64,000 nucleotides of DNA from a candidate division FCPU426 bacterium (GCA_963771075.1 CAVYSE010000011.1:352001-416000); one strand, 5' to 3'. Positions 11,069 through 34,584 are shown, counted from the first letter of the stretch. Notes: generated from the sequence alone by a model not told the origin. Program-made: numbers and translations.

Positions 11069-11084
11069 AGCAAAGGGGATGCCA
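11069..11084 (-). promoter_or_regulatory. sigma54 -24/-12 promoter for 10373..10954
   Basis: Minus strand TGGCATCCCCTTTGCT (GG-N10-GC). Confidence 0.75.
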
Positions 11085-11210
11085 CAGTTTAGATTATTGA
11101 AACGAGGATGATCGGGCCATGAAACCCCTTGGTTTGAGTTAGAAAGGTTTTTTTCGAGTAAAAGAGTGAAAAAAATAATAAAACTCGTAAAAGTATAAAT
11201 AGTCGAATTT

Positions 11211-11242
11211 TGTAGTTATTAACAATATTGTAGTATTAAACA
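11211..11242. promoter_or_regulatory. Putative enhancer (UAS) for a nitrogen-responsive sigma54 activator
   Basis: TGT-N8-ACA-N4-TGT-N8-ACA between divergent sigma54 promoters; recurs at 24241, 32378, 32492 and 34571. Confidence 0.6.
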
Positions 11243-11318
11243 TTATTCAAAACGGTTTTTTTATTTAATAAAGCCCAATATTTATGAAATTTTTACTTGT
11301 AAATTAGTTTTTGAGAAC

Positions 11319-11334
11319 TGGCACAAGGCTTGCT
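11319..11334 (+). promoter_or_regulatory. sigma54 -24/-12 promoter for amtB-1
   Basis: TGGCACAAGGCTTGCT, near-consensus. Confidence 0.9.
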
Positions 11335-11444
11335 TTTTCTCCCGGAACGTAAGGGGTTCCGTCCTGGCCCCGGGTCGTTGAGTAGGGACTTCCATCCGTG
11401 ATGAGCGGGGAAAGTAAAGTTTATAAACCTTAAGGAGGTAGAGT

Positions 11445-13118
11445 ATGTTGGCAAAAATTCGAAAGATAGGAAGCATCTCCCTGATGCTTTACTATCTCCT
11501 GGTACTAGCGGTACCGGTGGTGGTAAACGCCCAGACGGCGCCCGCTGCCGCGCCGGCTGCGGCGGCACCCGCCCCGGCGGCAACACCGGCGCCTCAACCG
11601 CCGGACCCGAACGGGTCGGCGACCGGCGGGATCTCGGACTTGACGTCTTTTAACAGTTTCAAGGACATCAAGAACCCGACCGTTTTGGAACTGGCGGCTG
11701 CCGTCGGCCATAACCGGGTGGCCATCAATATCGTCTGGACATTGGTGACTGGTTACCTGGTTATGTTCATGCAGGCCGGGTTCGCGATGGTGGAAACGGG
11801 CATGACCCGCGCCAAGAACGTGAACCACACCATGACCATGAACTTCATGATTTATCCCTTCGGGATGTTGGGGTTCTATGTTTGCGGCTTCGCCTTCATG
11901 TTCGGGGGTTTAGGCGCGTTAGGAACCTTGGGGGGGTATGCGGGTCTCAGTAATGAGATTACTTGGACCCTCTTCGGAAAACCCTTCGGCATGCTCGGGA
12001 ACGTCGGGTATTTCCTGACCGGCCCCGCCTATGACGTTGGAGTCTTCACCCTCTTCCTGTTTCAGATGGTGTTCATGGATACAACAGCCACCATCCCCAC
12101 GGGTGCCATGGCGGAACGCTGGAAATGGTCGGCCTTTTGCCTTTACGGGGTGGCCATCGGAACCATCATGTATCCCGTGTTCGGCAACTGGGTCTGGGGC
12201 GGCGGTTGGCTTTCGCAATTGGGCGTCAACTTCGGCCTAGGCCACGGCTACACCGACTTTGCCGGTTCCACGGTCGTGCACATGCAGGGAGGTGTAATCG
12301 CCCTGATCGGCGCTTGGATCATCGGGCCGCGCATCGGCAAGTTCAACAAGAACGGCACCCCCAACACCATCCCGGCTCATAACATGCCGATGGCCATCGC
12401 GGGTTGTTTCATCCTGGCTTTCGGTTGGTTCGGGTTCAACCCCGGTTCAACCCTGGCTGGCGCGGACTTGCGTATTTCGGTGGTGGCGGTCAACACCATG
12501 TTGGCTTCCGCAACCGGAGCCTTGTTTGCCATGATCTGGATCTGGATCCGTGGTGGCAAGCCCGATCCGGGAATGATGGTGAACGGGATGCTGGCCGGGC
12601 TCGTGGCCATCACTGGTCCTTCGGCTTTCGTGAACGCTCCGGGTGCCTGCTTGATCGGGATTGTTTCGGGAGTTCTGGTCATCGAGAGTGTTTTCTTCAT
12701 CGAACGCGTGCTCAAGATTGACGATCCGGTCGGGGCCATTTCGGTTCACGGCGTCAACGGAGCCTGGGGTTGTATCTCCCTGGGGCTTTTGGCGGATGGA
12801 GCCTACGGCCAAGGCTGGAACGGCGTTGGCGCGGACAAGTACATGGGTACCTCAGCCGCCGCGAACAACTTGAAAGGTGTTACGGGGTTGTTCTATGGGG
12901 ACGCCTCCCAGTTTGTGGCCCAAGTCATCGGCGTGGTTGTTTGTTTCGTAACCCTTGCGGTCATTTCCTATATCGTCTTCATGGTTATTGAAAAGACGGT
13001 TGGGAACCGGGTCTCACCCGAAACCGAAATCGAGGGGTTGGATATACCCGAAATGGGCTCGGTAGGCTATTGTGGAATCAAGATGGATAAGGCTTCTGAG
13101 AACGTAACTTCCCATTAA
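11445..13118 (+). CDS. amtB: Ammonium transporter (Amt) #1, long form
   Basis: FMQAGFAMVETG, DFAGSTVVH, GWFGFN and DDPVGAISVHG twin-His motifs; AAGGAGG SD. Confidence 0.97.
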   Translation: MLAKIRKIGSISLMLYYLLVLAVPVVVNAQTAPAAAPAAAAPAPAATPAPQPPDPNGSATGGISDLTSFNSFKDIKNPTVLELAAAVGHNRVAINIVWTLVTGYLVMFMQAGFAMVETGMTRAKNVNHTMTMNFMIYPFGMLGFYVCGFAFMFGGLGALGTLGGYAGLSNEITWTLFGKPFGMLGNVGYFLTGPAYDVGVFTLFLFQMVFMDTTATIPTGAMAERWKWSAFCLYGVAIGTIMYPVFGNWVWGGGWLSQLGVNFGLGHGYTDFAGSTVVHMQGGVIALIGAWIIGPRIGKFNKNGTPNTIPAHNMPMAIAGCFILAFGWFGFNPGSTLAGADLRISVVAVNTMLASATGALFAMIWIWIRGGKPDPGMMVNGMLAGLVAITGPSAFVNAPGACLIGIVSGVLVIESVFFIERVLKIDDPVGAISVHGVNGAWGCISLGLLADGAYGQGWNGVGADKYMGTSAAANNLKGVTGLFYGDASQFVAQVIGVVVCFVTLAVISYIVFMVIEKTVGNRVSPETEIEGLDIPEMGSVGYCGIKMDKASENVTSH

Positions 13119-13156
13119 TCGGGAAGGTTTGTTAAGTTGGTTGGGATGAAAAACCG

Positions 13157-13186
13157 AAAAAGTCCCCTGAATCGAGGGGACTTTTT
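13157..13186 (+). terminator. Terminator-like hairpin between amtB-1 and PII
   Basis: aaaaagtcccct-gaatcg-aggggacttttt. Confidence 0.7.
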
Positions 13187-13204
13187 CATATTTTAGGAGT
13201 TTTT

Positions 13205-13546
13205 GTGAAAAAAATAGAAGCCATCATACGGCCGGAGAAATTCGACAGCGTGAAGAAGGCCCTGGAGCTCGCCGGTTATACCGGGGTTACCATCACGGAG
13301 GTTGAAGGCCACGGCAAACAAAAGGGCCTTTCCCAACAGTTCCGAGGTTACAAGTACAAAGTCGAGTTTTTGCCCAAGTTGAAGCTGGAGATTGTGGCTC
13401 CCAGCGCTGATGTGGAGAAGCTGGTCAAAGCTATTTTGACGAGCGCATCCAGTGGTCACGTGGGGGATGGAAAAATATTCGTCTATACGATCGACGAGGT
13501 TTACCGGATCAGTAGTGGTGAAACAGGCGATACGGCTGTTTCTTAA
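13205..13546 (+). CDS. glnK: PII nitrogen regulatory protein
   Basis: MKKIEAIIRPEK, GHGKQKG, FLPK, GDGKIF; GTG start with AGGAG; retains Tyr51-equivalent. Confidence 0.93.
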   Translation: MKKIEAIIRPEKFDSVKKALELAGYTGVTITEVEGHGKQKGLSQQFRGYKYKVEFLPKLKLEIVAPSADVEKLVKAILTSASSGHVGDGKIFVYTIDEVYRISSGETGDTAVS

Positions 13547-13574
13547 AATTTGATTTTCCCTCGTGGGGAGTACG

Positions 13575-13606
13575 GGGGTTAACCGGATTGGGTTAACTCT
13601 TTTTTT
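13575..13606 (+). terminator. Terminator-like hairpin between two PII genes
   Basis: ggggttaacc-ggattg-ggttaactct followed by T-run. Confidence 0.6.
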
Positions 13607-13706
13607 ATGTGTTGAGAGGCGGTTTTCGATAGAGGTTGGGATGTCATCCCGACCGGTAGGCTTAAGTCATCTACCGAGCACTGCCGACCTAAAACTGGGG
13701 TCCGTG

Positions 13707-14048
13707 ATGAGAAAGATCGAAGCCATTATCCAACCCGCGGCCTTTGAGCGGGTCAAGGAAGCCTTGGAAGCGGCCGACTACCCGGGTATCACCATTACCG
13801 AGGTTAAGGGACATGGGAAACAAATGGGCTTGACCCAAAATTGGCTGGGCCGAAGCATCAAGGTGGACACCCTTCCCAAGATGAAATTAGAAATCGTCGC
13901 GATGGATGAGGAGGGAGAAAAGATCATCCAAACCATCCTTCAATCCGCTTGGACGGGAAAAAAAGGGGACGGGAAGATATTCGTTCATCAAATCGAGCAG
14001 GCGTACAAGATCAGCACCGGGGAATCAGGTGATTCGGTCGTAAGTTGA
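13707..14048 (+). CDS. Divergent PII-family protein
   Basis: MRKIEAIIQP, GHGKQMG, TGKKGDGKIF; lacks Tyr51 and the C-terminal RxR. Confidence 0.88.
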   Translation: MRKIEAIIQPAAFERVKEALEAADYPGITITEVKGHGKQMGLTQNWLGRSIKVDTLPKMKLEIVAMDEEGEKIIQTILQSAWTGKKGDGKIFVHQIEQAYKISTGESGDSVVS

Positions 14049-14084
14049 AAATAGCCGAGTTTTTTTCAAACCGGAAGGAATCCA

Positions 14085-15443
14085 ATGGACTCCATGAATT
14101 ACTGGCAGCAAATGGATGGCATGACCACCCTTTTGCATTTTCTCCCATTCGGGCTCCTGTTATTCAGCACGGCCGCCTTTCCTTTCATCCCTGGTATTTC
14201 CCGGTGGTGGGAAAGCATGCGAAACAAGTTTTTATTCGCCGCGGTCTGCGCGGGCGCAGGGGTGTTTTTATATCTTCGACCATCCGGTGACTACATGAAG
14301 GTGCTGGAAACTTATCTGGATTACCTCGCTTTTTTGGCGTTGGTGGGTTCCCTTTTTACGGTTAGCGGTGGAATCTACATTTCAGGCGCCTTCGCCGGGT
14401 TACCTTATATCAATACATTGTTTCTGGGGCTGGGTGCCGTCCTAGCGAGCCTATTAGGCACCACCGGCGCCAGCATGGTTTTGATCAGGCCCCTGCTTCG
14501 CGCTAATTTGATGCGCCGTCACAAAACCCATGTGGTCGTGTTTTTCATCTTCATCGTCTCAAACTGCGGGGGGCTCTTGACCCCCCTGGGCGATCCGCCC
14601 CTCTATCTGGGATTCCTCCGCGGGGTCCCGTTCTTCTGGACCCTTCGACTGATCCCCATATGGTCCCTGACCCTGTTGATTTTGCTCTTCATTTTCCATT
14701 TGATCGACGACAAAATTTTCGACGGCGAGGAAACACACGTCCGAGGCTCGCTGATCCAGGCCATATCGGACGCTGAACAACCGATCCAGGTGAAGGGACG
14801 TTTAAGCGTGCTTTGCCTCTTGGGGATCCTGTCCACGATCCTGGTGGCGGGCTACTGGCTGAACCCCTGGCTGGAGGCGCGGTGGGGAGCCCATGCGGTC
14901 GATGCCTCAAAAATATTCCAAATCCTGGTCATGACATCCCTCGGGTTGCTTTCCCATTACAAAACACCGAAGGATATCCACGAGGCGAACGAGTTTTCCT
15001 TCGCGCCCTTCTTGGAAGTCATGGTGCTTTTCTTTGGCATTTTCGGATCCATGATCCCGGCCCTCACGTTGTTGGAAGCCAAGGGCAAGACATTGGCCTT
15101 GAACCATTCGTGGGCGTACTTTTGGCTTTCCGGGGCATTAAGCAGTTTCCTCGATAATGCTCCGACCTATCTCAGCTACGCCGCCCTGGCGGCGGGACAA
15201 AATGGGCTTTCCACCGATCATTTAGGCGATTTGGCCCGGCAAGCACCCCAATTGCTCGCCGCGGTTTCCTGCGGGTCTGTCCTCATGGGAGCCAACAGTT
15301 ATATCGGAAATGGCCCCAATTTCATGGTGCGCGCCATTGCCGAGCAATCCCGCGTCCGAATGCCCTCCTTCGGGGGTTATATGCTTTGGTCAGGCGCGGT
15401 TTTAATTCCGATTTTTATCCTTCTTACTTTTATCTTCTTTTAA
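14085..15443 (+). CDS. IT-superfamily transporter (putative citrate transporter / Na+:H+ antiporter, CitMHS_2-like)
   Basis: GTTGASM, SNCGGLLTPLGDPPL, LSSFLDNAPTY and GANSYIGNGPNFMV motifs; start uncertain. Confidence 0.8.
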   Translation: MDSMNYWQQMDGMTTLLHFLPFGLLLFSTAAFPFIPGISRWWESMRNKFLFAAVCAGAGVFLYLRPSGDYMKVLETYLDYLAFLALVGSLFTVSGGIYISGAFAGLPYINTLFLGLGAVLASLLGTTGASMVLIRPLLRANLMRRHKTHVVVFFIFIVSNCGGLLTPLGDPPLYLGFLRGVPFFWTLRLIPIWSLTLLILLFIFHLIDDKIFDGEETHVRGSLIQAISDAEQPIQVKGRLSVLCLLGILSTILVAGYWLNPWLEARWGAHAVDASKIFQILVMTSLGLLSHYKTPKDIHEANEFSFAPFLEVMVLFFGIFGSMIPALTLLEAKGKTLALNHSWAYFWLSGALSSFLDNAPTYLSYAALAAGQNGLSTDHLGDLARQAPQLLAAVSCGSVLMGANSYIGNGPNFMVRAIAEQSRVRMPSFGGYMLWSGAVLIPIFILLTFIFF

Positions 15444-15454
15444 AATCATTGTCC

Positions 15455-16087
15455 ATGTCCGGTCGAATCCTCATGCTTCACAAACCCAAGGGGTATGTGG
15501 TCACCCGTCCCATCGAACCCTTGAACCCAACAACGGTTTATTCGATCCTTCCCCCGGAATTTCATGCCCAAGGTTGGGTTCCGGTTGGGCGGTTGGACAA
15601 GGATTCCAGCGGGTTGCTTCTTTTCGTGAGGGAAGGTTTTCTCGTCAAACTTCTTCAAACTCCAGGGAACATCCACAAGGTTTATGAGGTCTGGGTGAAG
15701 GGCCGTTTGTGTCCGGGGCACCTTCAACAGGTTTTGGATGGTGTTCAAACCCCCTTAGGTCCCCTTAAAGCAAAGGAGGTGGAGGTTTTAGGCGCCATGG
15801 GGGACAACACTTTGGTGAAAATGACCCTGGATGAGGGACAAAATCGGCAAATTCGCCGGATCTTTGCCTGTATGAAAGACATGGAAAAGAACAAGTATTT
15901 TAAGGCCCTGGACCTGATGCGAATCGCGATCGGACCTGTTTCGTTGGACTTGGAGCCGGGGAAATGGCGGTTTTTATCGGATGCGGAAACAGAATCGCTT
16001 TTGAGGGACTTGCCGAGGAAGGCGAAAAAAGCCCAACAACCAAAGGGTTTTTCGAAACCGAGCCTTCAAGGAAGAGGGAACCCCTGA
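15455..16087 (+). CDS. rRNA pseudouridine synthase (RsuA/RluE family, no S4 domain)
   Basis: HKPKGYV, PVGRLDKDSSGLLL and EGQNRQIRR motifs. Confidence 0.9.
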   Translation: MSGRILMLHKPKGYVVTRPIEPLNPTTVYSILPPEFHAQGWVPVGRLDKDSSGLLLFVREGFLVKLLQTPGNIHKVYEVWVKGRLCPGHLQQVLDGVQTPLGPLKAKEVEVLGAMGDNTLVKMTLDEGQNRQIRRIFACMKDMEKNKYFKALDLMRIAIGPVSLDLEPGKWRFLSDAETESLLRDLPRKAKKAQQPKGFSKPSLQGRGNP

Positions 16088-16158
16088 AGCTGTACCAAAC
16101 TTTTCTTATTATTCAATCTTTGCTGTGAAAGGTTGGGATTTTATTACCGGTTTTTAAT

Positions 16159-17592
16159 TTACAGGTTCAGTTCCACCCGCGCGTCGCCATCCAGGGCGAC
16201 CCTTCCCTCCAAGCCGATGTCGCTCACGAAGGCTTCCTCCATTTTTAAGGAAGTAATGGTCGTGCGCAGCATCGCGAAGTGCCCCAAGGGACGGTTGAGC
16301 AGTTTGGTGAGTTCTTCCTGCAATTTATCCAGGCTTTTCCCGACCGGGACCACCGCTTTTTCACGCAATGCATCGCGGATTCCGGAACCAGCGATGAATG
16401 TGGCCATTTGGACCAGGAAGTCGCTGGTCTGGATGTCGAAGTCCATATCGGGGAAGTCGATGACCTGGGTGTCCTCGTGGTATTTGGGAGTGCCCACCAA
16501 GTAGATGGTCAACTGGGCCTGGTGGCCGGATAGGTCGAGAAGGGGATCGTAATCCACCTGGGCTTCCACCACGAGCTGGCCTCCCGAACCGTAAACTGAG
16601 ATGTTGGTGATTTTCAGGTGGTGGTTGCCGCTTCCGGGCAGGGCCCGGTTGAGGATGCCCGTTTTGGGATCGATCAATAATTTATTGACCTCGTGGAAGC
16701 TGATCTTCAAGTTGGTCTCGATATGAAACCCCTCCGGGCCCGGCTGGTAGTCCGAAAGGGGCGGCAATTCGCTTTTGTCCAGTTTGGGTTTTTGGCCGAT
16801 GATGACGTTGGGCTGAACATAAACCTCGAAGACCGTTTCGAGCTTGGGCGTTTTGGGGTCGGGGATCAGGCGATAAGACCCCACGCTGATCTTATCGGTC
16901 TTGAACTGAAGCCAAATATCCTCCGCCATCCGGATCGGTTCTTGGAGCGATTTCCAAAGTTCCTTGGCCTTTTCCTCGATGTTCGTCGCTTTTTTCAACG
17001 ACTCATGGAATTTTGAAGTGCCTTTGCGGAGTAACTTCTCGCCTTTCTTCAAGTCGGATTCTTCCTCCGTTGCGGGCGCGCCCGACACCGGGGCCGATGC
17101 CGTGGCGGAGTTGTCTTCCGCCTCGTTAAAGTTGGGGGCTTCCAGGTGCCAATCCTTGGTCCATTGAATGGAGGAGGCGAGGTCCACCTTGGCGTCCTGT
17201 TCCACTTCCTCGGCTAATTTTTCCGCTTCCTTGGACAGGTTTTCCGAGCCGGTTTTCTTCTTGTAATGCATATGCATATGGGCGGTGAGGGTGTTGCCGG
17301 AGTATTCCCAATCCAACGGGTCCCACCATACGGTCGTGCCCAGGCTTTTGGTGAGGGATTGCTCGGCTTTTTTGAAATCGTTTTTCACGAACTGCGCCAG
17401 ATGTTTTTCCACGTCGCTTAACTGGGGAAGATTCACCACCACCGGTATGCGGAGCCTCGCGGGCGGGGGAGGGTTCAGGGTGTGAACGGGTGCGGGACGG
17501 ATAGGGACCCTTAAATGGTTGCCGGTCGCACAGCCGATGAAAAGCATGCAAAAAGGAATCAAAATCAGATGGGGAGATGTCTTATAACGCAT
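16159..17592 (-). CDS. Lipoprotein, DUF4403-like
   Basis: Lipobox FIGC; WKSLQEPI...WLQF and IYLVGTPKY pattern. Confidence 0.6.
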   Translation of the reverse strand: MRYKTSPHLILIPFCMLFIGCATGNHLRVPIRPAPVHTLNPPPPARLRIPVVVNLPQLSDVEKHLAQFVKNDFKKAEQSLTKSLGTTVWWDPLDWEYSGNTLTAHMHMHYKKKTGSENLSKEAEKLAEEVEQDAKVDLASSIQWTKDWHLEAPNFNEAEDNSATASAPVSGAPATEEESDLKKGEKLLRKGTSKFHESLKKATNIEEKAKELWKSLQEPIRMAEDIWLQFKTDKISVGSYRLIPDPKTPKLETVFEVYVQPNVIIGQKPKLDKSELPPLSDYQPGPEGFHIETNLKISFHEVNKLLIDPKTGILNRALPGSGNHHLKITNISVYGSGGQLVVEAQVDYDPLLDLSGHQAQLTIYLVGTPKYHEDTQVIDFPDMDFDIQTSDFLVQMATFIAGSGIRDALREKAVVPVGKSLDKLQEELTKLLNRPLGHFAMLRTTITSLKMEEAFVSDIGLEGRVALDGDARVELNL

Positions 17593-17939
17593 GGCGGCAT
17601 TTTACACTCTGAAAAAAGAGGCGTGAAACCCCGATCTAAGCAAAGATTTGAAGCAAGGGCGGGAAAAGGGACCGCGGTGGGGTCGGACCCTATAACAATG
17701 TTCGGGGTGGACTCCATTATCAAAAGGCCACTTGTTGAGGCTGGAGGGGGCTGGAATTGGCTGGTTAAACCCCTTTGCCTGCCCCAAAACAGGAAAAGAT
17801 CGGTTCCGGAGGCAAAAAAAGAGGGTTCATGGGGCCTAAGGTGCCTTCGCCTATACAGGCCAATAAGAAACTCCTTGTAAAACCAACGTTACTTTGGATT
17901 AATATCCCCTGAAGATCCTAATTTCTAGGAGGTGAGGCT

Positions 17940-18221: not shown

Positions 18222-18233
18222 AAGAGTTTTTTG

Positions 18234-18266
18234 AAAAAGGGGACTCCTTGGAGTCCCCTTTTTTTT
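18234..18266 (+). terminator. Intrinsic terminator
   Basis: aaaaaggggactcc/ggagtccccttttt. Confidence 0.85.
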
Positions 18267-24240: not shown

Positions 24241-24263
24241 TGTAATACTCTACATATTTGTAG
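24241..24263. promoter_or_regulatory. Putative nitrogen-regulon UAS
   Basis: TGT-aatactct-ACA-tatt-TGTAG, containing the perfect-arm palindrome CTACA-N4-TGTAG. Confidence 0.6.
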
Positions 24264-24328
24264 TATCGCTTGTTTTTAAAAACACTTTAATAACAACAGT
24301 TTTGGGCCGCTTTTGGAATTTACACGAA

Positions 24329-24344
24329 TGGCATGTTGTTTGCT
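24329..24344 (+). promoter_or_regulatory. sigma54 promoter for the porin gene
   Basis: TGGCATGTTGTTTGCT. Confidence 0.8.
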
Positions 24345-24431: not shown

Positions 24432-25625
24432 ATGAGTAAGTTCAAAAAGTTGTTCAGCTTATTGGCCTCGATCGCGCTCTCGAGCGTGATGGCTCCGGCC
24501 TTGGCGCAGACGGCGGCGACTACGCCAGCCGCTGCTGCTGCGGCGACACCTACGCCGGTGCCGACCCCGGCCGTGACGGTGGATGGTTTGGTGGATGCTT
24601 ATTATTCGTACAATTTCACCAACCCGGGAACGAGTTCTTCGACGGCGGGCAAGAACACGGGTTATTTCTATAACTCGGCCACCGATTCATTCACTTTGGG
24701 TTTGGCGGAAGCCAAGATAACCGCCACCCAAGGCGCGGCCAGCGGCCATTTGGTTTTGGGGTACGGAGAAGAATCTTCGTTGAACATCGGCGCGGCTCCT
24801 GGAATTGATGTCCTGCAAGCCTATGTGTCCTACAACCCCGGGCAATGGACATTCAATTTCGGGAAATTCGTCACCTGGATGGGATATGAGGTGATCGAAT
24901 CCACAGGCAACATGAACTACAGCCATTCACTGTTGTTCGGTGCCTTGCCCTTCTGGCATACCGGTTTCAGCGCGAACTATGCCCCCTCTTCGACATTCAA
25001 TGCGACTGTGTACGTGACTGACGGGGACAACACCACGAACGCCACCCCATTGGGCAAAACCTACGGGTTGGAACTGGGCATCACGCCCAATTCCATGTGG
25101 ACCATCACCTTGAACGGGATCCTGTCTCCCTTCACAGAGCCTGTCTCCTTCACTACGCAAAACTCGTTCACAGGTGAGGCCATCATCGGGTACAAGCCCG
25201 ATGGCAACTGGTCCTTCGCCTTGGACGGCCAATATGGAATGTGGAGCATGCCTTCCGGGATTGATTCGCCCAGCTACTTCGGGGCGGCCCTCTATGGCAA
25301 ATACCAAATTCAGAGTGACTATTCTGCCGCTCTGCGTTTGGAATACCTGAATGACTCGGAGAACACGGCTTATGCCCTCGGCAGTGGAGGCAGCCTCTAT
25401 GGCAACGGAGATGCTTCCGGCAAGAGCGACGGGTTCACGGGAATGGAAGCCACTTTGACCCTGGAACACGACTTCACGCCGAACATGATCGCCCGACTGG
25501 AGGGCCGGATCGACATGGCCACCGACAGCGCCACGGGCGGAACGAACGATGTGTTCGCCACCGGCACAACGTCTTTGTCTTCCAGCATGGTCACTGGAAC
25601 AGCAAGCGTAGCTTACACGTTCTAA
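24432..25625 (+). CDS. Outer-membrane beta-barrel porin (BBP2/OmpL-like)
   Basis: Signal peptide; VDAYYSYNF, QAYVSY, GKFVTWMGYEVIES, NYSHS, PFWHTG; C-terminal YTF. Confidence 0.85.
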   Translation: MSKFKKLFSLLASIALSSVMAPALAQTAATTPAAAAAATPTPVPTPAVTVDGLVDAYYSYNFTNPGTSSSTAGKNTGYFYNSATDSFTLGLAEAKITATQGAASGHLVLGYGEESSLNIGAAPGIDVLQAYVSYNPGQWTFNFGKFVTWMGYEVIESTGNMNYSHSLLFGALPFWHTGFSANYAPSSTFNATVYVTDGDNTTNATPLGKTYGLELGITPNSMWTITLNGILSPFTEPVSFTTQNSFTGEAIIGYKPDGNWSFALDGQYGMWSMPSGIDSPSYFGAALYGKYQIQSDYSAALRLEYLNDSENTAYALGSGGSLYGNGDASGKSDGFTGMEATLTLEHDFTPNMIARLEGRIDMATDSATGGTNDVFATGTTSLSSSMVTGTASVAYTF

Positions 25626-25876: not shown

Positions 25877-25930
25877 GATTAGACGTTAAAAGCCTGACGA
25901 TTGACAGACAAGCGCGAACTGGAGTCAACC

Positions 25931-26302
25931 ATGTTTAAAATTGAAGCTATTATTCGGCCCGAGAAATTGGAGGCCGTTCAACTCAAATTGCGCAAGATCG
26001 GCTATCCCGGCATGATGGTCACCGAAATGGAAGGCCATGGCCGCCAGAAAGGACTGCACTCCGGCTGGCCGGATTCCCTCCGGGTCAATTTTCTCCCCAA
26101 AACCAAGCTGGAGATCGTCGTGGAAAAACGTCATCTCAACGCGGTTATCCAGGCGATCCTCAAGGGGGCGCGCACGGGGGAGATGGGCGACGGAAAGATT
26201 TTCATCATTGAGATCAAGAACGCCATCCGTATCCGTACGGGGGAGCGGGGTTCGACGGCCATTTCAATGAAAGAAAAGGCTGAAAAACCCAAAAAGAAAT
26301 AA
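25931..26302 (+). CDS. PII-family protein with divergent T-loop and Lys-rich tail
   Basis: KIEAIIRPEKL, GHGRQKG, TGEMGDGKIF, RIRTGE; GGAG SD. Confidence 0.92.
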   Translation: MFKIEAIIRPEKLEAVQLKLRKIGYPGMMVTEMEGHGRQKGLHSGWPDSLRVNFLPKTKLEIVVEKRHLNAVIQAILKGARTGEMGDGKIFIIEIKNAIRIRTGERGSTAISMKEKAEKPKKK

Positions 26303-26860: not shown

Positions 26861-26865
26861 AGGCA

Positions 26866-26978: not shown

Positions 26979-27770
26979 TTGATCTTGAAAATCGCCTTTC
27001 TTTATTTCGGCTATATGGCATGGGGTTGCTTTGCCCTTTTGCCCCTCGTTTCCCTTCGGGAGATTGGGCAGGGATTTTACCGATTCTTCGGTTTTCTTTG
27101 CGCGGCACTCGCGACCCTTTCCATCGGTATTGCGATCTATGAGTGGGCGGGACTGGGGGAAACTTACCGGTCCTCCTCCTGCGCCTTAAGCGCCTTCCTT
27201 TTTTTCAACCTTTGCTTCACGGCCGCTTTAAAGGCGAGGGCGCGTGCTTTACTTTGGTCAGTTTGGGCATTGGGGTTGGCCAGCGGGATATTGGCCTTGG
27301 CCATTTACCCCTGGTCGACCCTGAACCAAGGGTTTTTATTGGGGTTCGACGCGGTTTCCTCCGCACTTGTTTTGGGAGCGGGCATCCTGGCCATGATGCT
27401 GGGCCATTGGTATCTGGTGACTCCCAAATTGTCGATCAAACCCTTGAAGCGGTATTCAGCGGCCTATATCCTTCTGACGGTTTTTACAGCCCTAAAACTT
27501 CTTTTGAGTTATCACCTCGCCGTGGGTTGGGGGTCGGAACCGGTCACCCCAGAGGGCGCCCGGTTAATGGGGGACGACCTGGTCTTCATGCTTTTTCGGG
27601 TCACCTGGGGCGTGATGGCGCCACTCGCGGGGGCGTACTTTATCTGGGAAACGGTCAAGATCAAATCCACCCAATCGGCCACAGGCATTCTTTACGCCTC
27701 CATGGTTTGCACAATCATTGGGGAAGGGATGGGACTCTTTTTGACGCTTTCGACGGGAGTACCGTTTTAG
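26979..27770 (+). CDS. Hypothetical multi-pass membrane protein (MMLGHWYL / STQSATGILY motifs)
   Basis: About 8 TM segments; TTG start. Confidence 0.7.
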   Translation: MILKIAFLYFGYMAWGCFALLPLVSLREIGQGFYRFFGFLCAALATLSIGIAIYEWAGLGETYRSSSCALSAFLFFNLCFTAALKARARALLWSVWALGLASGILALAIYPWSTLNQGFLLGFDAVSSALVLGAGILAMMLGHWYLVTPKLSIKPLKRYSAAYILLTVFTALKLLLSYHLAVGWGSEPVTPEGARLMGDDLVFMLFRVTWGVMAPLAGAYFIWETVKIKSTQSATGILYASMVCTIIGEGMGLFLTLSTGVPF

Positions 27771-27911
27771 TTGGAAGTTGGCGGTTCGCAGTCGGCAGCT
27801 TAAAACTTAAATCAAAGACGAAACAAAGGTGCATTTAGTGGACAAGAATATTTTCCTTCGGTTTTCGGGGGTTGGGTTTTTACTGCCAACTGCGAACTGT
27901 CGACTGTCGAC
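27770..27911. repeat. Heptamer inverted-repeat element
   Basis: Left arm 27770-27797 (gttggaa gttggcg gttcgca gtcggca); right arm 27884-27911 (tgccaac tgcgaac tgtcgac tgtcgac). Confidence 0.8.
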
Positions 27912-27920
27912 GGGTGTCTA

Positions 27921-28394
27921 ATGGAAATAAATACCTTTTGCCCGGAATGCGAAAACGGCTTATTCCTATCCGAAATGCCTAAGCCTGGCTTGGTACCTTG
28001 CTCCAAGTGTGGAAAAGGGAGGGAAGCCAAAGGGAATGGCAGGCTTGCGAAAGACGGTTCGGTTGAAAAGTGCGGCCTTTGCGGATGCGAGGAATTTTAC
28101 CGTCTGAAGGATTTCAACACCAAATTGGGTTTATGGACGGTGGTGTTGATATTTGCTTTGGCCCTGATCTTTGAGAAATGGTTCTTTCCAATATTAATAG
28201 CCGGAGCGGTATTGGATTTGGCCTTGTACTTCCTGCTTCCGGATGTGGTGGAGTGCTACGATTGCAAGGCAGTCTACCGTGGGTTACCCTTTTCGCCGGA
28301 CCACAAGGGGTTTGACCTGGCGATTCACGATAAATACGTTTTTAAGAAAAAAAGCAGGACAAACATGCAAAATAAGGAAGTCACCCATGACTGA
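27921..28394 (+). CDS. Zn-ribbon membrane protein (four CxxC motifs, 2 TM)
   Basis: CPEC, CSKC, CGLC and CYDC. Confidence 0.75.
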   Translation: MEINTFCPECENGLFLSEMPKPGLVPCSKCGKGREAKGNGRLAKDGSVEKCGLCGCEEFYRLKDFNTKLGLWTVVLIFALALIFEKWFFPILIAGAVLDLALYFLLPDVVECYDCKAVYRGLPFSPDHKGFDLAIHDKYVFKKKSRTNMQNKEVTHD

Positions 28395-29250
28395 AAACCC
28401 CAGTGCCATGCCGGAAGGGGAAGGGCCCCTTTACGCCCCGGAAACGGGCTGGTCCCTCTTTATTAAACTCTTCATCGTCCCAGCCGCGATAGTCTTGGTT
28501 GCCCTGGGGATCTTTTTCCTGGGTTCCCTCGCCCTCCAGCACCCCAAAAGCGCCGAGCAATACCTCCAGGAATTGAGAAGCGACAATACCAACCACCGTT
28601 GGCAAGCCGCCTTCGAGCTTTCCCGCATTCTCAACCAGGGCGAAAGGATTGAGATGGACCAAAACCTTCGTTCCCAGTTGGTGCAGACATTCGAGGATAG
28701 TAAAAAGGACGATCCGAAAATAAGGCAGTACCTTGCGTTGGTTTTGGGTCGATTGAAGGAGAAAACGGCGGTTCCAGCGCTTTCGGAAGCTGTGACGGAC
28801 GAATCCACCGATGTTCGGGTTTACAGCCTATGGGCCCTGGGTAATATCGAGGACCCGGCGGGCGGACCCGCGGCCCTTGCGGCCCTTTCCGACCCGGACC
28901 CCAACGTTCAGCTCATGGCGGTCGGGGCCCTAAGTTCCTTGAAGTATGAACCGGCTAAACCCGTACTGGAAAAAGAACTGGAAAGCACCAACTCGCCTCT
29001 CCGCTACGATTCGGCGGTAGCCTTGGCCCGGATGGGAGACAACAAATGCGTGCCTACCTTAGGGGATATGTTGGACCTCAAGACGACGGGGCAAGCTGGG
29101 GATGAAAAAATTCAATCCGCGAAGTTAGCGGCGATTGAGGGATACCAGGCCTTTCCCGATCCGGTGCTCATGTTGAAGGTGCGGGATTTGAGTAAGAATG
29201 ATCCTGATTTAAAGGTGCGTGAAGCGGCCTTGGACGCGCTCAAGAAATAA
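28387..29250 (+). CDS. Membrane-anchored HEAT-repeat protein
   Basis: N-terminal TM; PBS-lyase HEAT repeats (VRVYSLWALG, VREAALDAL); overlaps the upstream stop. Confidence 0.85.
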   Translation: MTENPSAMPEGEGPLYAPETGWSLFIKLFIVPAAIVLVALGIFFLGSLALQHPKSAEQYLQELRSDNTNHRWQAAFELSRILNQGERIEMDQNLRSQLVQTFEDSKKDDPKIRQYLALVLGRLKEKTAVPALSEAVTDESTDVRVYSLWALGNIEDPAGGPAALAALSDPDPNVQLMAVGALSSLKYEPAKPVLEKELESTNSPLRYDSAVALARMGDNKCVPTLGDMLDLKTTGQAGDEKIQSAKLAAIEGYQAFPDPVLMLKVRDLSKNDPDLKVREAALDALKK

Positions 29251-29325
29251 GAGAACTTCCAAAATATTCATTCCAGGGGCACCGATTTTAAATCTTGGTT
29301 ATTTTGCGGTTTTACAAGTGCTTAA

Positions 29326-29343
29326 CTGGGTCTCTGTGGTAAA
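29326..29343. repeat. Degenerate octamer-element right arm
   Basis: ctgggtctctgtggtaaa. Confidence 0.45.
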
Positions 29344-29384
29344 GGGTTATTGATGCTATATCCAAGTCGTAAAATGAGGTTGAA

Positions 29385-30077
29385 ATGATCCTGTCCGAAG
29401 TCGCCGTACAAGGTCATCGCTGCCTGATGATGGACCCGCCCATTGTTCCGCCCGGCGCGCCGGTCGTCGTGGTTCTGCATGGCCTCGGCACCAATGGAGA
29501 TGATCTGGTACCTGTGGCGGAAGAACTGGGTTTGTCGGGATGCCGGTTCGTATTTCCTGACGCGCCGCTCCTTCTGGCGGGGTACCCCGACACGGCCTTT
29601 GCTTGGTATGACTTCCAGATTCATGACCGTAAAGAGATTGAACAAAGTAGGGAATATCTGTTCAAGATTTTTGACCGCTTTACTAACGACCCCAATCTAA
29701 GGCCCGGACCCGGCAAAGAAAAAGGAAGCAGTCCCCTGATCGTCATGGGTTTTTCCCAAGGCGGGGTCATGTCATTGGAAAGCGGGTTGAATTATAAGGG
29801 TAAGCTTTTGGGTATTGTTTCCATGAGCGGATACATGCCCGACGCCTGGGCTACCTTAAAGAAGGCCGAGGCTCCTTTTGAGACTCCTATCCTATTGGTG
29901 CATGGAACTGAGGACCCGGTGGTGCCGGTGGAAGGTTCCCGCAAGGCGAAGAAAGAGTTGGAACAGGTGGGATATCATCCCCATCTGAAGGAATTCCAAA
30001 TGCCCCACACCATCACAGAAGATTCACTCGCGACTGTCTCCGAATTCCTTTGTAAAATCATCCCCTCAAATCGTTAA
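29385..30077 (+). CDS. Phospholipase/carboxylesterase (alpha/beta hydrolase)
   Basis: LHGLG, AWYD, GFSQGG, HGTEDPVV and PH catalytic motifs. Confidence 0.93.
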   Translation: MILSEVAVQGHRCLMMDPPIVPPGAPVVVVLHGLGTNGDDLVPVAEELGLSGCRFVFPDAPLLLAGYPDTAFAWYDFQIHDRKEIEQSREYLFKIFDRFTNDPNLRPGPGKEKGSSPLIVMGFSQGGVMSLESGLNYKGKLLGIVSMSGYMPDAWATLKKAEAPFETPILLVHGTEDPVVPVEGSRKAKKELEQVGYHPHLKEFQMPHTITEDSLATVSEFLCKIIPSNR

Positions 30078-30209
30078 CTAATCGGAAATAGATGGTTTTG
30101 TCATGGCTTCTTTACCTTGAAAACCCGGGCTTGGATTTGTAACTTATCGAGGTCCTGTTAAGCAGACCAACGTGTCTATTCTTCAACTTGAATCTGGAGG
30201 TTTTTTCAA

Positions 30210-31130
30210 ATGAGGTTCTTACGAGGCGCATTCCTTTTTTTAGCCGTGAACTTTTTGGTTATGGCGACGATCTCTGTCATTGTTGGGGTTTTGGGAATGA
30301 TGGGGTATCAAATCCCTGTCGGGTACACGGGTTTGATGATGATGTGCTTTCTCTGGGGCATGGGTGGGTCCTTCATCTCCCTTCTTATATCGAGATGGAT
30401 GGCGAAGTCGATGATGGGAGTGCAGCTCATCGACCCCGAGAACGCGGGGTCCCCTGAGGAAAGGTGGCTGGTCGATACGGTCCACCGCTTGGCCAATAAC
30501 GCGGGGCTGACCACCATGCCGGAGGTTGGGATTTATGAGAGCCCGGATCCGAATGCTTTCGCGACCGGGCCTGGGAAAAACAGCGCTTTGGTGGCTGTTT
30601 CGACAGGCCTTTTCAACACGATGGGCAAGGATGAAATCGAAGGGGTGTTGGGCCATGAACTGACCCACGTCCATAACGGTGACATGGTGACCATGACCTT
30701 GATCCAGGGAGTGGTCAACTCCTTCGCCATGTTCTTCGCTTACATCATCAGTTCCGCGATCGCCCGGGGTGGGAGAGACAGGCAAGGAGGGTCCAGCTTC
30801 TTCCTTCAATATATGATTCGATGGGTATTGGAAATGGTCCTTTGTTTCTTTGGATCGCTCTTTGTGACCATGCCCTTTTCCCGCTGGAGGGAATACAGGG
30901 CCGACGCGGGAGGAGCCAAGCTGGCGGGCAAGAATAAGATGATCAGCGCATTGAAGGCCCTTCAGAGGGTTTATGAAAGGCCCGCCCCGCCGGTGCAGGA
31001 GCCTGCGGCTATGAACGCGTTCAAGATCTCAAGCCGGGACGGGGGCTTGATGGCCCTCATGGCCAGCCACCCGCCATTGGAAAAACGAATCGCGGCTTTG
31101 GAATCCGGTTCGACAGTTGTCGAAGACTAA
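30210..31130 (+). CDS. htpX: Zinc metalloprotease HtpX
   Basis: PNAFATG, HELTH (HExxH), NGDMVT, FSRWREYRAD and SHPPLE motifs. Confidence 0.96.
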   Translation: MRFLRGAFLFLAVNFLVMATISVIVGVLGMMGYQIPVGYTGLMMMCFLWGMGGSFISLLISRWMAKSMMGVQLIDPENAGSPEERWLVDTVHRLANNAGLTTMPEVGIYESPDPNAFATGPGKNSALVAVSTGLFNTMGKDEIEGVLGHELTHVHNGDMVTMTLIQGVVNSFAMFFAYIISSAIARGGRDRQGGSSFFLQYMIRWVLEMVLCFFGSLFVTMPFSRWREYRADAGGAKLAGKNKMISALKALQRVYERPAPPVQEPAAMNAFKISSRDGGLMALMASHPPLEKRIAALESGSTVVED

Positions 31131-31143
31131 GTGACATTTGTTT

Positions 31144-31176
31144 AAAGGCGGTTGGGATTTCCCAACCGCCTTTTTT
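31144..31176. terminator. Bidirectional terminator
   Basis: aaaggcggttggga/tcccaaccgccttt. Confidence 0.85.
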
Positions 31177-31188
31177 ATTTAGAGAGTC

Positions 31189-32250
31189 TTAAGGCCAGTT
31201 AACTGGGAATATTTCCGGATGAAAATGAGAACCCGTCTTTTTATATTTCGTTTCCAGCATATTGACCCGGCCGTCCTTTAAGGACTCCACGTGTAGTTTT
31301 TCCCAAGCAAAGGAACTTTTATCCGCGATCGACTTTGCTTTTCCCCAAAATTGGAAGCCTTTCGCGAGTTTTCCTTCCATCCAATTCACTTCGGCGAATC
31401 CAAGCAGGGTATAGATACGGCCCCGGGTATCGCCTGTGATGACGAACAGTCGATCGGCGGATAGAAAAGCCTTGCGAGCTAGGGAGAATCGCCGAAGCAT
31501 TTTTTCCGCAGTGCCAATGGACCAGAGGGTATAGGCATAGCTGACCTTGTCACCGATCGTTCCGTAAAGTTTCTCGGCTTTGCGGTAAAAGGGAAGCGCC
31601 TGTTTAAACCGGCCCGCCATGCGCTCCACGTTGCCAAGACCGCAATAGGAGTAGGCGGTACCGAAGGTATCCTTCCTTTCCCACATCCGCCGGTTGGCTT
31701 CCCGATACCATTTGCCCGATTCAGCGTAACGGCCCAGCATTCGGTAAACCCCACCCAAGGCGCAGCAGGTATAGGCGATTCCTTCTTCCTCTTTTAGCTT
31801 TTTGTAAATCCGCAAGGCGACCTGAAGTTCCGCCAGGCCCCTTCTCATGTCACCTGCGATGCGGTAAGTCCCGCCCAAGGCCCAATGCACAAAAGCTTCG
31901 CCCTGGGGATCTTTTTCTTTCTTATAAAAGGAGAGTGCTGCTTTCAACTTGGTCAAGGCTTCGATAGGCCGACCTACAGCCCGGGCCGCCAAAGCCCAGC
32001 CTACTTTGGCATCCATCACGCCCATTGGATCCTTTCCTTTCAAACAGTTGGAAGCCATTTCGTAATGATGGAGGGAGGCACGGAAATCACCTTGAATTCT
32101 TTGAACATCAGCGAGACCTAAAGCGGCTTCGGCTTTTTCAAACGGATCAAATAGGTTTTTCAATAGCCTTTTGTACAGGTTTTGGGCTTTCTTAAATTGG
32201 GATGAAAGCCTAGCCTGATGGGCCTGGTCAAAGAGTCGAACAGTGTTCAT
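31189..32250 (-). CDS. Tetratricopeptide-repeat protein (MalT-like TPR)
   Basis: Repeated (A/T)xxxxxLGxxYRxxG units. Confidence 0.85.
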   Translation of the reverse strand: MNTVRLFDQAHQARLSSQFKKAQNLYKRLLKNLFDPFEKAEAALGLADVQRIQGDFRASLHHYEMASNCLKGKDPMGVMDAKVGWALAARAVGRPIEALTKLKAALSFYKKEKDPQGEAFVHWALGGTYRIAGDMRRGLAELQVALRIYKKLKEEEGIAYTCCALGGVYRMLGRYAESGKWYREANRRMWERKDTFGTAYSYCGLGNVERMAGRFKQALPFYRKAEKLYGTIGDKVSYAYTLWSIGTAEKMLRRFSLARKAFLSADRLFVITGDTRGRIYTLLGFAEVNWMEGKLAKGFQFWGKAKSIADKSSFAWEKLHVESLKDGRVNMLETKYKKTGSHFHPEIFPVNWP

Positions 32251-32377
32251 GAAAAGTCCTTGGGTGAGGTGGGTTCATCATCGGGATTTCGGTTTTTTTT
32301 TCATTAATAAAAAACTTAAAAACCCAAACTAATTGTTATTAAGGTTATACACATTTAAAAATACAAAATAAAAAGTT

Positions 32378-32391
32378 CTACAATATTGTCG
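32378..32391. promoter_or_regulatory. Putative nitrogen-regulon site (distal)
   Basis: CTACA-ATAT-TGTCG. Confidence 0.5.
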
Positions 32392-32491
32392 CGTCAATAA
32401 AAGCATTGATTTTATTGATCTTTTAAACCTCCCTTATTCAAATTTGAATTTTTTAAATGGCTAATTTTTTGTGGATAAAATTTTTCAAAGT

Positions 32492-32514
32492 TGTAACAAG
32501 CGACAATTTCGTAG
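32492..32514. promoter_or_regulatory. Putative nitrogen-regulon UAS (proximal)
   Basis: TGT-aacaagcg-ACA-attt-CGTAG. Confidence 0.55.
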
Positions 32515-32569
32515 CCTGTTTTTAAGATTTTTATCCATAAATTCATGGAATAACCTTCATTTTCATCAT

Positions 32570-32585
32570 TGGCACGAAACTCGCT
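32570..32585 (+). promoter_or_regulatory. sigma54 promoter for amtB-2
   Basis: TGGCACGAAACTCGCT. Confidence 0.8.
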
Positions 32586-32643
32586 TTCCTAAGCCTGTTT
32601 TGCTCCGAGAGAGAGCGAATTTTGCCGAAAAGGAGATTGAAGA

Positions 32644-34029
32644 ATGAGTTTTCTTAAAACTTTTGCCCCGGTTTTGAGGGGGAATGGGATCAGATTGGCC
32701 CTGATCGGCTTCACCTTGGGACTGACAATCAACGCTTTGGCTCAACAGGCTCCGGCCGCGTCCGTTCCGGCGCAAGCCCCTGCGGCTGCGCCTGCCGCCG
32801 CGACCCAGGCAGCGCCAGTGGCTCCGGCCATCAGCGCGGGCGACACAGCTTGGGTGCTAACTTCCGCTGCTCTCGTGCTTTTGATGACGCCCGGGTTGGC
32901 TTTCTTTTATGGCGGGATGGTGCGCAGGAAAAACGTTCTGGCCACAATCATGCAGAGTTTTTTCCTGGTGGCCTTGATCAGCGTGCAATGGGTCATCTGG
33001 GGCTACTCCTTGGCCTTCAGCCCGGGGAGCACTCCTTACATTGGAAGTCTTGATTGGCTCTTTCTGCACAATATGCCAGCGGTGAGCTCCAACGCTCCGA
33101 CCATCCCCCATTATGCCTACATGATATTCCAGGCCATGTTCGCCATCATTACCCCGGCCCTGATCTGCGGGGCTTATGCTGAGCGTGTGAACTTCAAGGG
33201 CTTCGTTGTCTTCTCGCTTCTGTGGGCCACTTTCGTTTACGACCCGATCGCTCACTGGGTCTGGGGCGGTGGTTTCTTTAGCAACGCGCTTGATTTTGCC
33301 GGCGGCACGGTTGTTCATATGTCCTCCGGATATTCAGCCCTTACTCTGGCGCTTCTTCTGGGGACCCGGAAGGGATACGGGAAGAATCCCATGGTTCCCC
33401 ACAACCTAACCCTGGTCCTTTTGGGCGCGAGCCTGCTGTGGTTCGGTTGGTTCGGTTTCAACGCTGGTTCCGCCTGTGCCGCCAACTCTCTGGCTTGCAA
33501 CGCCTTCGTCACCACCAATACGGCAACTGCCATGGCGGCAATCACTTGGTGCCTCATCGAATTGTTTCATCACGGCAAGGCTACTTCCCTTGGAGCTGCT
33601 TCGGGCGCGGTGGCTGGACTGGTTGCCATCACCCCGGCTTGCGGTTATGTGGATGTGATGGGGGCGTTGATCATCGGCTTCATCGTTTCCTTCCTCTGCT
33701 ATGCGGCCATCCAAATCAAGGTCAAGATGGGCTATGACGACTCGCTGGACGCCTTTGGGGTTCATGGGGTGGGTGGGACCTGGGGCGCCTTGGCCACCGG
33801 CCTTTTCGCTTTGAAATCCATCAACGGGACCGATGGCTGGTTCGCCGGCAACCCGGCCCAATTTTTCATCCAACTCAAGACCGTGGGTTGCACGGCGGTT
33901 TACTCCGTCCTTTGCACGATCGTCCTCTTCTTGCTGGTGGAGAAAACCATCGGCTTGCGTGTTTCCGCGAGGGATGAGGAAGTGGGTTTGGACCTGTCCC
34001 AACATGGGGAAGAGGGATACAACTTCTAA
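32644..34029 (+). CDS. amtB: Ammonium transporter #2
   Basis: LMTPGLAFFYGG, DFAGGTVVH, DDSLDAFGVHG and GLDLSQHGE motifs. Confidence 0.97.
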   Translation: MSFLKTFAPVLRGNGIRLALIGFTLGLTINALAQQAPAASVPAQAPAAAPAAATQAAPVAPAISAGDTAWVLTSAALVLLMTPGLAFFYGGMVRRKNVLATIMQSFFLVALISVQWVIWGYSLAFSPGSTPYIGSLDWLFLHNMPAVSSNAPTIPHYAYMIFQAMFAIITPALICGAYAERVNFKGFVVFSLLWATFVYDPIAHWVWGGGFFSNALDFAGGTVVHMSSGYSALTLALLLGTRKGYGKNPMVPHNLTLVLLGASLLWFGWFGFNAGSACAANSLACNAFVTTNTATAMAAITWCLIELFHHGKATSLGAASGAVAGLVAITPACGYVDVMGALIIGFIVSFLCYAAIQIKVKMGYDDSLDAFGVHGVGGTWGALATGLFALKSINGTDGWFAGNPAQFFIQLKTVGCTAVYSVLCTIVLFLLVEKTIGLRVSARDEEVGLDLSQHGEEGYNF

Positions 34030-34115
34030 AGAGCAGCCGATAGCTATTGGCTTTTAGCAAGGCATTTAACGGAAGACAAAAATTGGAACACGGAAAGAGC
34101 GTAAAGGAGAAAATA

Positions 34116-34451
34116 ATGAAAAAAGTCGAGGCGGTCATCCGTCCCAGCGCTTTGAGGGATATTTTGGAGAGTTTGAAGAACGTTGGTTATCACGGTGTCA
34201 CCGTGACCGAAGTGCAAGGCCATGGAAAACAAAAAGGCATCACCGAATCCTACCGGGGTCAGAGTGTTGAAAATTTACTGCCCAAGATGGTGATCACCGC
34301 GGTCGTGAACGACAAGGAAGTACCCAAGGTCCTGAAAGCGATCATTGATGCGGCGCGAACGGGTGAAATAGGTGACGGGAAGATATTCGTATCATCGGTT
34401 TCGGATGCCATCCGAATAAGAACCGGTGAAAAAGGACCCAAAGCCTTATAA
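34116..34451 (+). CDS. glnK: PII protein
   Basis: MKKVEAVIRP, GHGKQKG, TGEIGDGKIF, RIRTGE; AAGGAG SD. Confidence 0.95.
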   Translation: MKKVEAVIRPSALRDILESLKNVGYHGVTVTEVQGHGKQKGITESYRGQSVENLLPKMVITAVVNDKEVPKVLKAIIDAARTGEIGDGKIFVSSVSDAIRIRTGEKGPKAL

Positions 34452-34464
34452 GCTGATTTTTAGT

Positions 34465-34503
34465 AAAAAAGAGGCCTGGAGGACTCCCTCCGGGCCTTTT
34501 TTT
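34465..34503 (+). terminator. Intrinsic terminator
   Basis: aggcctggagg/cctccgggcct followed by T-run. Confidence 0.8.
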
Positions 34504-34570
34504 GCTTCAATCGCCTCAAAAACCCTCGATTTTTGCTTATTTAACTGCCCGAACTATGATTTTAAATATG

Positions 34571-34584
34571 TTACAAAATTGTAG
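34571..34584. promoter_or_regulatory. Putative nitrogen-regulon site upstream of amtB-3
   Basis: TTACA-AAAT-TGTAG. Confidence 0.5.

Follow-up and report, generated by a model that had tools for sequence, protein, structure and literature searches.

Which protein reads a composite site, TGT-N8-ACA-N4-YGTAG, that recurs upstream of three sigma54 promoters in a bacterium of candidate division FCPU426? The promoters lie in a stretch of 64,000 nucleotides (GCA_963771075.1 CAVYSE010000011.1:352001-416000; hereafter the window, with all window positions counted from its first nucleotide) and precede two ammonium transporter genes, amt1 and amt2, and a porin gene. A preliminary description had assigned the site to a lineage-specific, nitrogen-responsive enhancer-binding protein encoded outside the window. 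Our analysis suggests, with a probability of about 0.8, that the composite belongs to tandem palindromes serving as enhancers of a NifA-family activator (C14:47416-49011 in the same genome), which would act as a general nitrogen regulator in a bacterium where no nitrogenase was found.

The three composite matches (11211, 24241 and 32492), their sigma54 boxes, the core-only sites and the distances of 86, 66 and 56 bp from the end of the composite to the -24 TGG (amt1, porin and amt2, respectively) were all confirmed in the sequence. The full pattern has five matches in the 4.39 Mb genome, and the two outside the window both lie inside ORFs. Shuffled upstream windows of the three promoters give the composite 1 in 20000, a figure that flatters it because the pattern was taken from these same three sites. 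For comparison, 50 upstream regions of relatives were collected in three sets, comprising 6, 22 and 22 of 30 loci each. The first set holds amt1 orthologs at 88% or above, leaving out L007 and L008 (another arrangement), L009 (cut) and distant matches; from the second, three fragments were excluded along with five boxless copies that were second copies or lay within an operon; in the third, three loci were cut by contig ends, one second-in-operon copy was excluded and four served as controls. A sigma54 box was found in 39 of the 50 regions.

A matrix was trained on 36 promoters from relatives, with the three of this genome held out. The top motif of an unseeded palindromic search over these promoters was ACTACAAATTTGTAGT, reached from 5 of 60 starts with 13.2 bits (9.7 for the next), and the held-out sites score 14.1 (amt1), 17.4 (porin) and 15.4 bits (amt2) with the resulting matrix. 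A palindrome of at least 10 bits occurs in 37 of the 39 sigma54-bearing amt and porin promoters, 36 of these 39 having trained the matrix. The proposal of a nitrogen regulon tied to sigma54, its promoters sharing a conserved site upstream, is borne out. The repeat unit is the palindrome nCTACA-W4-TGTAGn, whose core C and G are invariant in the 37 aligned sites while the flanks vary; its 4-nt center is conserved as A/T, and the N8 spacer carries little information.

The composite is thus real as a motif, but it is the inner part of a larger arrangement, combining one palindrome's 3' half with the whole of a second palindrome 18 bp on. If either palindrome may be the stronger, an inner pair YGT-N8/9-ACR joined to the palindrome was found in 31 of 39 promoters, with a spacer of N8 in 28 and N9 in three; spacers of N5-7 and N10-13 occur at most twice, N10 in two promoters. 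The amt and porin pairs keep the two inner halves, plus usually one outer half. A model with the composite as the sole unit was abandoned for the tandem model, as the best site has a YGT upstream at N8 in just 16 of 37 cases (other spacers at most one).

At amt1, a weak distal palindrome (11201-11216, 5.2 bits), which supplies the TGT at 11211 as its 3' half, lies 18 bp from the main palindrome TTAACAATATTGTAGT (11219-11234), which is followed by an additional ACA half-site at 11240; the sigma54 box TGGCACAAGGCTTGC (11319-11334, plus strand) is kept in all five orthologs examined. The porin enhancer (24241-24264) combines a TGT half-site at 24241 with a main palindrome at 24249-24264, ahead of a box matched by pattern at 24329-24344 (plus strand). 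The amt2 enhancer (32492-32515) has the same layout, with the half-site at 32492 and the palindrome at 32500-32515, and its box, TGGCACGAAACTCGC (32570-32585, plus strand), is also a pattern match, with a less canonical -12 element. When the 12 intergenic sigma54 boxes of the genome are ranked by their best palindrome, the four of the window come first and that of glnA fifth (10.9 bits); the remainder reach 9.4 and 7.0 bits, then five of at most 4.0. No match to the IHF consensus was found between site and promoter at any of the three promoters.

The genome encodes RpoN and Sigma54_activat proteins, and the top match to the latter profile is the 531-residue GAF-AAA-HTH_8 protein at C14:47416-49011, the likely activator outside the window. 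It scores 578.4 bits on TIGR01817 (NifA), above the cut-off of 528.85, compared with 340 bits against a cut-off of 558.6 on TIGR01818 (NtrC), and carries a GAF domain in place of the N-terminal receiver domain; its closest PDB entry is NifA, 9qq6. The preliminary description had excluded the NifA family, to which this protein belongs, on spacer length. The recognition helix of the C14 protein reads TPRQLGY, compared with TPRQIAY or TPRQIGY in canonical NifA, and the other Sigma54_activat proteins of the genome have unlike helices. Its gene stands directly upstream of glnA and the sigma54 box of glnA. Orthologs lie at 72–90% identity; the activator was detected in 26 of the 31 genomes of the family and missed in five, in one of them because it is split. 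In the distant relatives G036 and G030 the activator adjoins amt genes, and the palindrome is absent from G031 and G037, whose amt-linked activator carries a different helix.

A nif-specific role finds little footing here. No nifH was found in this genome (G000, 96.7% complete), and nifH passes the cut-off in two of 41 genomes and is broken in a third. In G013 and G001 the nif genes are accompanied by a second GAF activator, and at the nifH promoters examined in relatives the palindrome score stays below 9 bits.

The best site upstream of glnA falls within the activator gene itself, in its last codons (CCT ACT TTT TTG TCG), 139 bp from the box. We compared this region in 28 genomes, of which 27 could be parsed (G105 was missed by the pattern). 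All 12 genomes with a TGGCA box no more than 160 nt from the activator stop keep the string AC-N TTT TTG T, as do three of the 15 others (G014, G108 and G104); among these exceptions, G014 has about 1 kb between the genes and G104 lacks this glnA. TTT TTG makes up 13% of the 5548 Phe-Leu pairs in the genome. G008, G023 and G106 use TTC CTC or TTC CTT, and their palindrome lies between the two genes, while in G005, G109 and G009 the box is decayed or missing and the codons are lost. On a FastTree tree, the two codon states switch at least four times on well-supported branches. Against this stand the sites themselves, which are weak (5.1–12.4 bits) and unpaired, and the Fisher p of 4e-5 for codon retention, which overstates the case as relatives are not independent samples. 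For both reasons the evidence is good but circumstantial, and the last codons of the activator probably hold the glnA enhancer. This copy inside the terminal codons is the new detail here; a limited literature search returned no paper that treats sigma54 regulation in the lineage, nor any that describes an enhancer within the final codons of an activator gene. Separately, a type I glnA was not found at E 1e-100 in G015, G104, G105, G016, G006, G022 and G013, all of which keep the activator.

Single palindromes have a different setting. Upstream of the activator gene, a site scoring 10 bits or more is present in 22 of 26 genomes; it begins with a -35-like TTGAC or TCGAC in 16 of the 22, overlaps TACAAT, 17 nt behind TTGYCT, in four, and is paired in only one. 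A lone palindrome over a sigma70-type element is the layout that negative autoregulation would have, with the reservation that TTGACA itself provides half of the palindrome. A second case stands ahead of amt3, where a TATGAT hexamer (34555-34560) is followed by a single palindrome (34570-34585, plus strand), the core described alone near 34571, which scores 17.6 bits. The arrangement is kept in the three same-genus genomes that have amt3, and the region upstream of amt3 is without a sigma54 box. The site probably represses amt3, a reading that draws on the conserved TATGAT because a promoter scan there gave no full sigma70 match (and no terminator). The other lone core, described near 32378 (17.2 bits), is a distal palindrome at 32377-32392, between a divergent TPR gene and amt2, and occupies the same place in G001 and G003.

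The helical phasing proposed for the three promoters fared less evenly. The three window distances alone would be in phase by chance with a probability of 0.06. Measured from pair centers, the distances to the TGG fall into six classes (69, 78, 79, 91, 103 and 111 bp) whose phases cluster with p of 0.03 at a period of 10.5 bp, 0.02 at 11 and 0.18 at 10, or 0.044 for the best of the periods. With single best sites, phasing is not significant (17 distance classes, p 0.33–0.68). Helical phasing of sites and promoters is plausible but weakly supported.

Has such a site been seen before? The comparisons that follow use excerpts of the cited papers; for the regulon compilation of Kazakov et al. (2015, PMC4641369) these cover 30 of the 117 sites listed for DVU1949, with eight further rows by gene, and all 25 for DVUA0143. 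The same palindrome (e.g. CTACAAAAATGTAG) is listed there, as a prediction, for DVUA0143, a nif activator of Desulfovibrio vulgaris, with sites in pairs 18 bp from each other. A less strict form is predicted for DVU1949, a regulator of nitrogen metabolism, at nine nitrogen operons and in autoregulation; this assignment of the motif to DVU1949 in the Desulfovibrionales is purely inferential (PMC4641369). Here and in D. vulgaris, the palindrome, the 18-bp pairs, the sigma54 promoters and a site starting with TTGAC at the regulator's own operon are shared. Desulfovibrio, however, divides nif and assimilation between two regulators, whereas here one NifA-type protein fits assimilation and no nif was found. 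In 18 kb of the plasmid pDV, the exact composite has a single match, between nifH and the homocitrate synthase gene. DVU1231, DVU3392, DVU1258 and DVU1823 we take to be amt, glnA, glnN and gltB, the source table giving only nitrogen metabolism and transport. The C14 protein is 45% identical to the pDV protein and has the same helix, on a long branch in a quick tree open at its base. The domain rows of DVU1949 and DVUA0143 in PMC4641369 look swapped, since the sequence given as the DNA-binding domain of DVU1949 comes from the C-terminus of plasmid-encoded WP_011176720.1 (L143:8977-10524). In another row of that table, the helix of DVU0569 is similar to the one that the amt-linked activators of G036 and G030 carry, a lead suggesting that DVU0569 could be the true assimilation regulator of Desulfovibrio.

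The activators of alternative nitrogenases provide the experimental precedent. AnfA of Rhodobacter capsulatus binds two TAC-N6-GTA sites (PMC7294313), and for VnfA of Azotobacter vinelandii, VnfA1 promoters mostly contain two GT(T/A)C-N6-GTAC motifs (PMC9542535), both supported by mutation, EMSA and ChIP-seq. Like the C14 protein, these are GAF-AAA-HTH proteins, and their TAC-N6-GTA core occurs in pairs, as at the window sites. They differ in driving alternative nitrogenases and in an N-terminal cysteine motif, and the site center is A/T-only here; the C14 protein has three cysteines in all and no close pair in its N-terminal 210 residues, and no NifH-family gene for an alternative nitrogenase was found in the genome. 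With the exact composite at D. vulgaris nifH, the predicted sites of 2015 and the AnfA/VnfA core already in print, the motif is not new, nor is it confined to one lineage, and the main novelty claim of the preliminary description falls. Consistent with this, among 61 genomes of another phylum, that of G041, 37 have an activator homolog, and the palindrome core lies close to the homolog gene in 14 of the 29 loci examined (one partial locus was left out). Several of these loci have tandem palindromes 20, 21 or 24 bp apart, and the sites precede nifH, nitrite reductase or amt-P-II genes. A literature search for Nitrospira with nifA, glnA and amtB together found none; a NifA-like gene has been linked to nxr, and in that excerpt not to this motif (PMC6606698), and the excerpts of PMC12316311 and PMC10434106 contain nothing on it.

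Canonical NifA shares with the C14 protein the domain order, the TIGR01817 cut-off, a nearly identical helix and the half-site letters TGT(A/C)R, and differs in its nif targets, its GAFTGA loop (GSYTGA here) and its TGT-N10-ACA site. Probing 18 gene starts in three plasmid nif regions yielded six promoter boxes, all with TGT-N10-ACA and with palindrome scores of at most 5.3 bits. In Aquifex aeolicus, the NifA-like protein Nlh1 (AQ_218) is said to bind about 100 bp upstream of glnBA. Its host is a non-diazotroph, and control of nitrogen assimilation has been speculated for it (PMC9866876); we liken it to the C14 protein by role alone, and a search on AQ_218, Nlh1 and DVU1949 gave nothing further. 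NtrC, Geobacter GnfM (PMC2995071) and Leptospira EbpA (PMC12655853) resemble it in role, with sigma54 activation of amt or glnA and repression from promoter-overlapping sites; a receiver domain and a partner kinase set NtrC and GnfM apart, and EbpA differs in having two GAF domains. The regulon thus resembles NtrC in role and AnfA, VnfA and DVUA0143 in site, apparently through a NifA-family protein that does not regulate nif here.

Bacterial enhancer-binding proteins bind as dimers at an enhancer, assemble into an ATPase oligomer and reach the sigma54 polymerase by looping. In the mechanism we propose, one dimer of the C14 activator would bind each palindrome, and two dimers would bind a palindrome pair cooperatively. 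When nitrogen is short, the paired dimers would assemble into the ATPase oligomer, which would reach the sigma54 polymerase by looping, so that the promoters of amt1, the porin gene, amt2 and glnA are opened. Where a single site lies over a sigma70 promoter it would repress, at the activator's own gene and probably at amt3. Least certain is the signal: the GAF domain may read nitrogen status via 2-oxoglutarate or a P-II protein, which NifA GAF domains bind in other species (PMC9866876).

Several observations weigh against this proposal. The sigma54-contact loop of the C14 protein and of 48 of its 51 nearest homologs is GSYTGA, not GAFTGA, and its activating ability is for that reason assumed; the variants GSFTGA and GAYTGA are present in other predicted activators. 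G002 (90% complete) and G020 (80%) have the sites, yet a full-length activator was not found in them. A control that favors the proposal, at most 8.0 bits in the amt upstream regions of seven same-phylum genomes without this activator type, is weakened because several of these amt genes are second in their operons and the 900-nt windows may miss the promoter. No sigma54 box was found in 11 of the 50 upstream regions, and the inner pair is absent from eight of the 39 promoters, including four from other families. About ten other intergenic sites of 13–15.5 bits lack a sigma54 box, and most adjoin genes without an evident nitrogen role. No site with a sigma54 box was seen at gltB, which had been expected alongside glnA, nor at type III glnA and glnB-glnE; the gltB negative comes from the genome-wide scan alone, as a targeted look may have begun inside the gene. 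Apart from the proposal itself, the divergent sigma54-type box at 11069-11084 (minus strand), a pattern match that had been counted among the promoters, is present in the sequence but was found in only two of six orthologous regions, one of them degenerate, and its function is doubtful.

The best surviving alternative, which we consider unlikely, keeps the same activator but has its dimer bind the inner TGT-N8-ACA as a short-spacer NifA site, with ACA-W4-TGT arising as a by-product of adjacent half-sites. The sharp preference for N8 (28 of 39, other spacers 0–3) and the nearly canonical NifA helix fit this geometry, and NifA DNA-binding domains are monomeric in solution (PMC10590331), so that half-site geometry could flex. 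But 21 of the 22 autoregulatory palindromes have no N8/9 pair, nor have those at 34570, at 32377 and at glnA; its 4-nt center is kept A/T where the N8 spacer is nearly without information; and in the other phylum palindromes are spaced 20, 21 or 24 bp apart. Less likely still is that another regulator, either a different enhancer-binding protein (cf. DVU1949) or a non-sigma54 factor, reads the palindromes and that the C14 gene is merely a target. The assignment to DVU1949 in the Desulfovibrionales, the sites in G002 and G020 and the GSYTGA loop could be explained in this way. The helices of the remaining Sigma54_activat proteins argue otherwise, as does the way the motif tracks the C14-type protein across the phylum and disappears in G031 and G037; the sole D. 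vulgaris protein with this helix among the 36 listed is plasmid-encoded, like the composite-bearing nifH promoter. That the sites are chance AT-rich sequence or a DNA-bending element bound by no specific protein is hardly credible, for although the amt1, porin and amt2 upstream regions are 64–79% AT and 29 of 1310 overlapping AT-rich intergenic windows (about 2%, real sites included) reach 12 bits, the invariant core C and G in 37 aligned sites, the fixed 18-bp pairing and the codon-level retention at glnA all speak against it. An RNA element was also considered and set aside: Rfam detects only two c-di-AMP riboswitches in the window (3292-3469 and 7065-7230, minus strand), away from the sites and ahead of APC-family transporter genes.

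Under the NifA-family reading of tandem palindromes, an uncultured lineage gains a probable master regulator of nitrogen, together with the site it would read and the genes it would control, and automatic labels of a "nif-specific NifA" would here mark ammonium scavenging rather than nitrogen fixation. A site grammar is predicted, with an 18-bp pair at activated promoters and a single site over sigma70 elements; if single sites repress the activator gene and perhaps amt3, transporters would be swapped with nitrogen supply. The predicted enhancer within the regulator's terminal codons would have been repeatedly gained and lost across genomes. The system is also a clean test case for one NifA-type helix facing both TGT-N10-ACA and TAC-N6-GTA. 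We tentatively raise a further idea, rather doubtful at present: ACA-W4-TGT might be the ancestral NifA-family site and the global regulation of ammonium assimilation the ancestral job, with TGT-N10-ACA derived from the inner halves of two such palindromes spaced 20 bp. Palindromes at that distance are seen beside the homologs of G063, G054 and G074. If so, TGT-N8-ACA would be the 18-bp version, one helix would read both motifs, site number and spacing would decide between activation and repression, and the tail of the activator gene would be a glnA enhancer.

Two ammonium transporter genes and a porin gene lie behind the forward promoters, each with P-II genes following. The amt1 ammonium transporter (11445-13118, plus strand) scores 364 bits on TIGR00836, above its cut-off, and is followed by two P-II genes recognized by domain matches (13205-14048, plus strand) and a CitMHS_2-family transporter (14085-15443); the same family follows the amt cluster of G036. 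Divergent from amt1 is a 193-residue ORF of no known family (10373-10954, minus strand), which matches only hypothetical proteins in the Atlas and stands beside amt1 in five of five orthologous loci. The porin is a BBP2 (OmpL-like) beta-barrel protein (24432-25625, plus strand; PF07642, E 8e-55) with a P-II gene behind it (25901-26302, plus strand; PF00543). By profile match, amt2 (start 32644) and amt3 (start 34648) are each accompanied by their own P-II gene, the two gene pairs spanning 32644-34451 and 34648-36400, both on the plus strand.

Elsewhere in the genome there are 11 clear P-II domains and one weak one (on C11, C20 and C28), three of them consecutive at C11:290281-291408. No GlnD was detected, PF08335 matching only one 1026-residue protein, which by its length and double match was read as GlnE and not GlnD. 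Two rpoN copies (C17:141763-143301 and 161599-163212) form an inverted duplication with the same neighbors; the second is frameshifted near its end, and the duplication may be an assembly effect. In G031, an NtrC-like-helix activator stands beside amt (L062), and about 170 nt behind it a GCAC-N5-GTGC inverted repeat upstream of a sigma54 box replaces the palindrome. The sigma54 boxes with weak palindromes of 9.4 and 7.0 bits are at C27:25880, ahead of a methyltransferase-like ORF, and at C11:281512, ahead of a 553-residue secreted or outer-membrane ORF between kdpD-like genes. At the left end of the window (38-1183, gene start C11:351141), an APC transporter is fused to a P-II domain; its upstream intergenic region has no sigma54 box and carries a palindrome of 14.8 bits 274 nt upstream of the gene, which makes the fusion gene a possible further member of the regulon.

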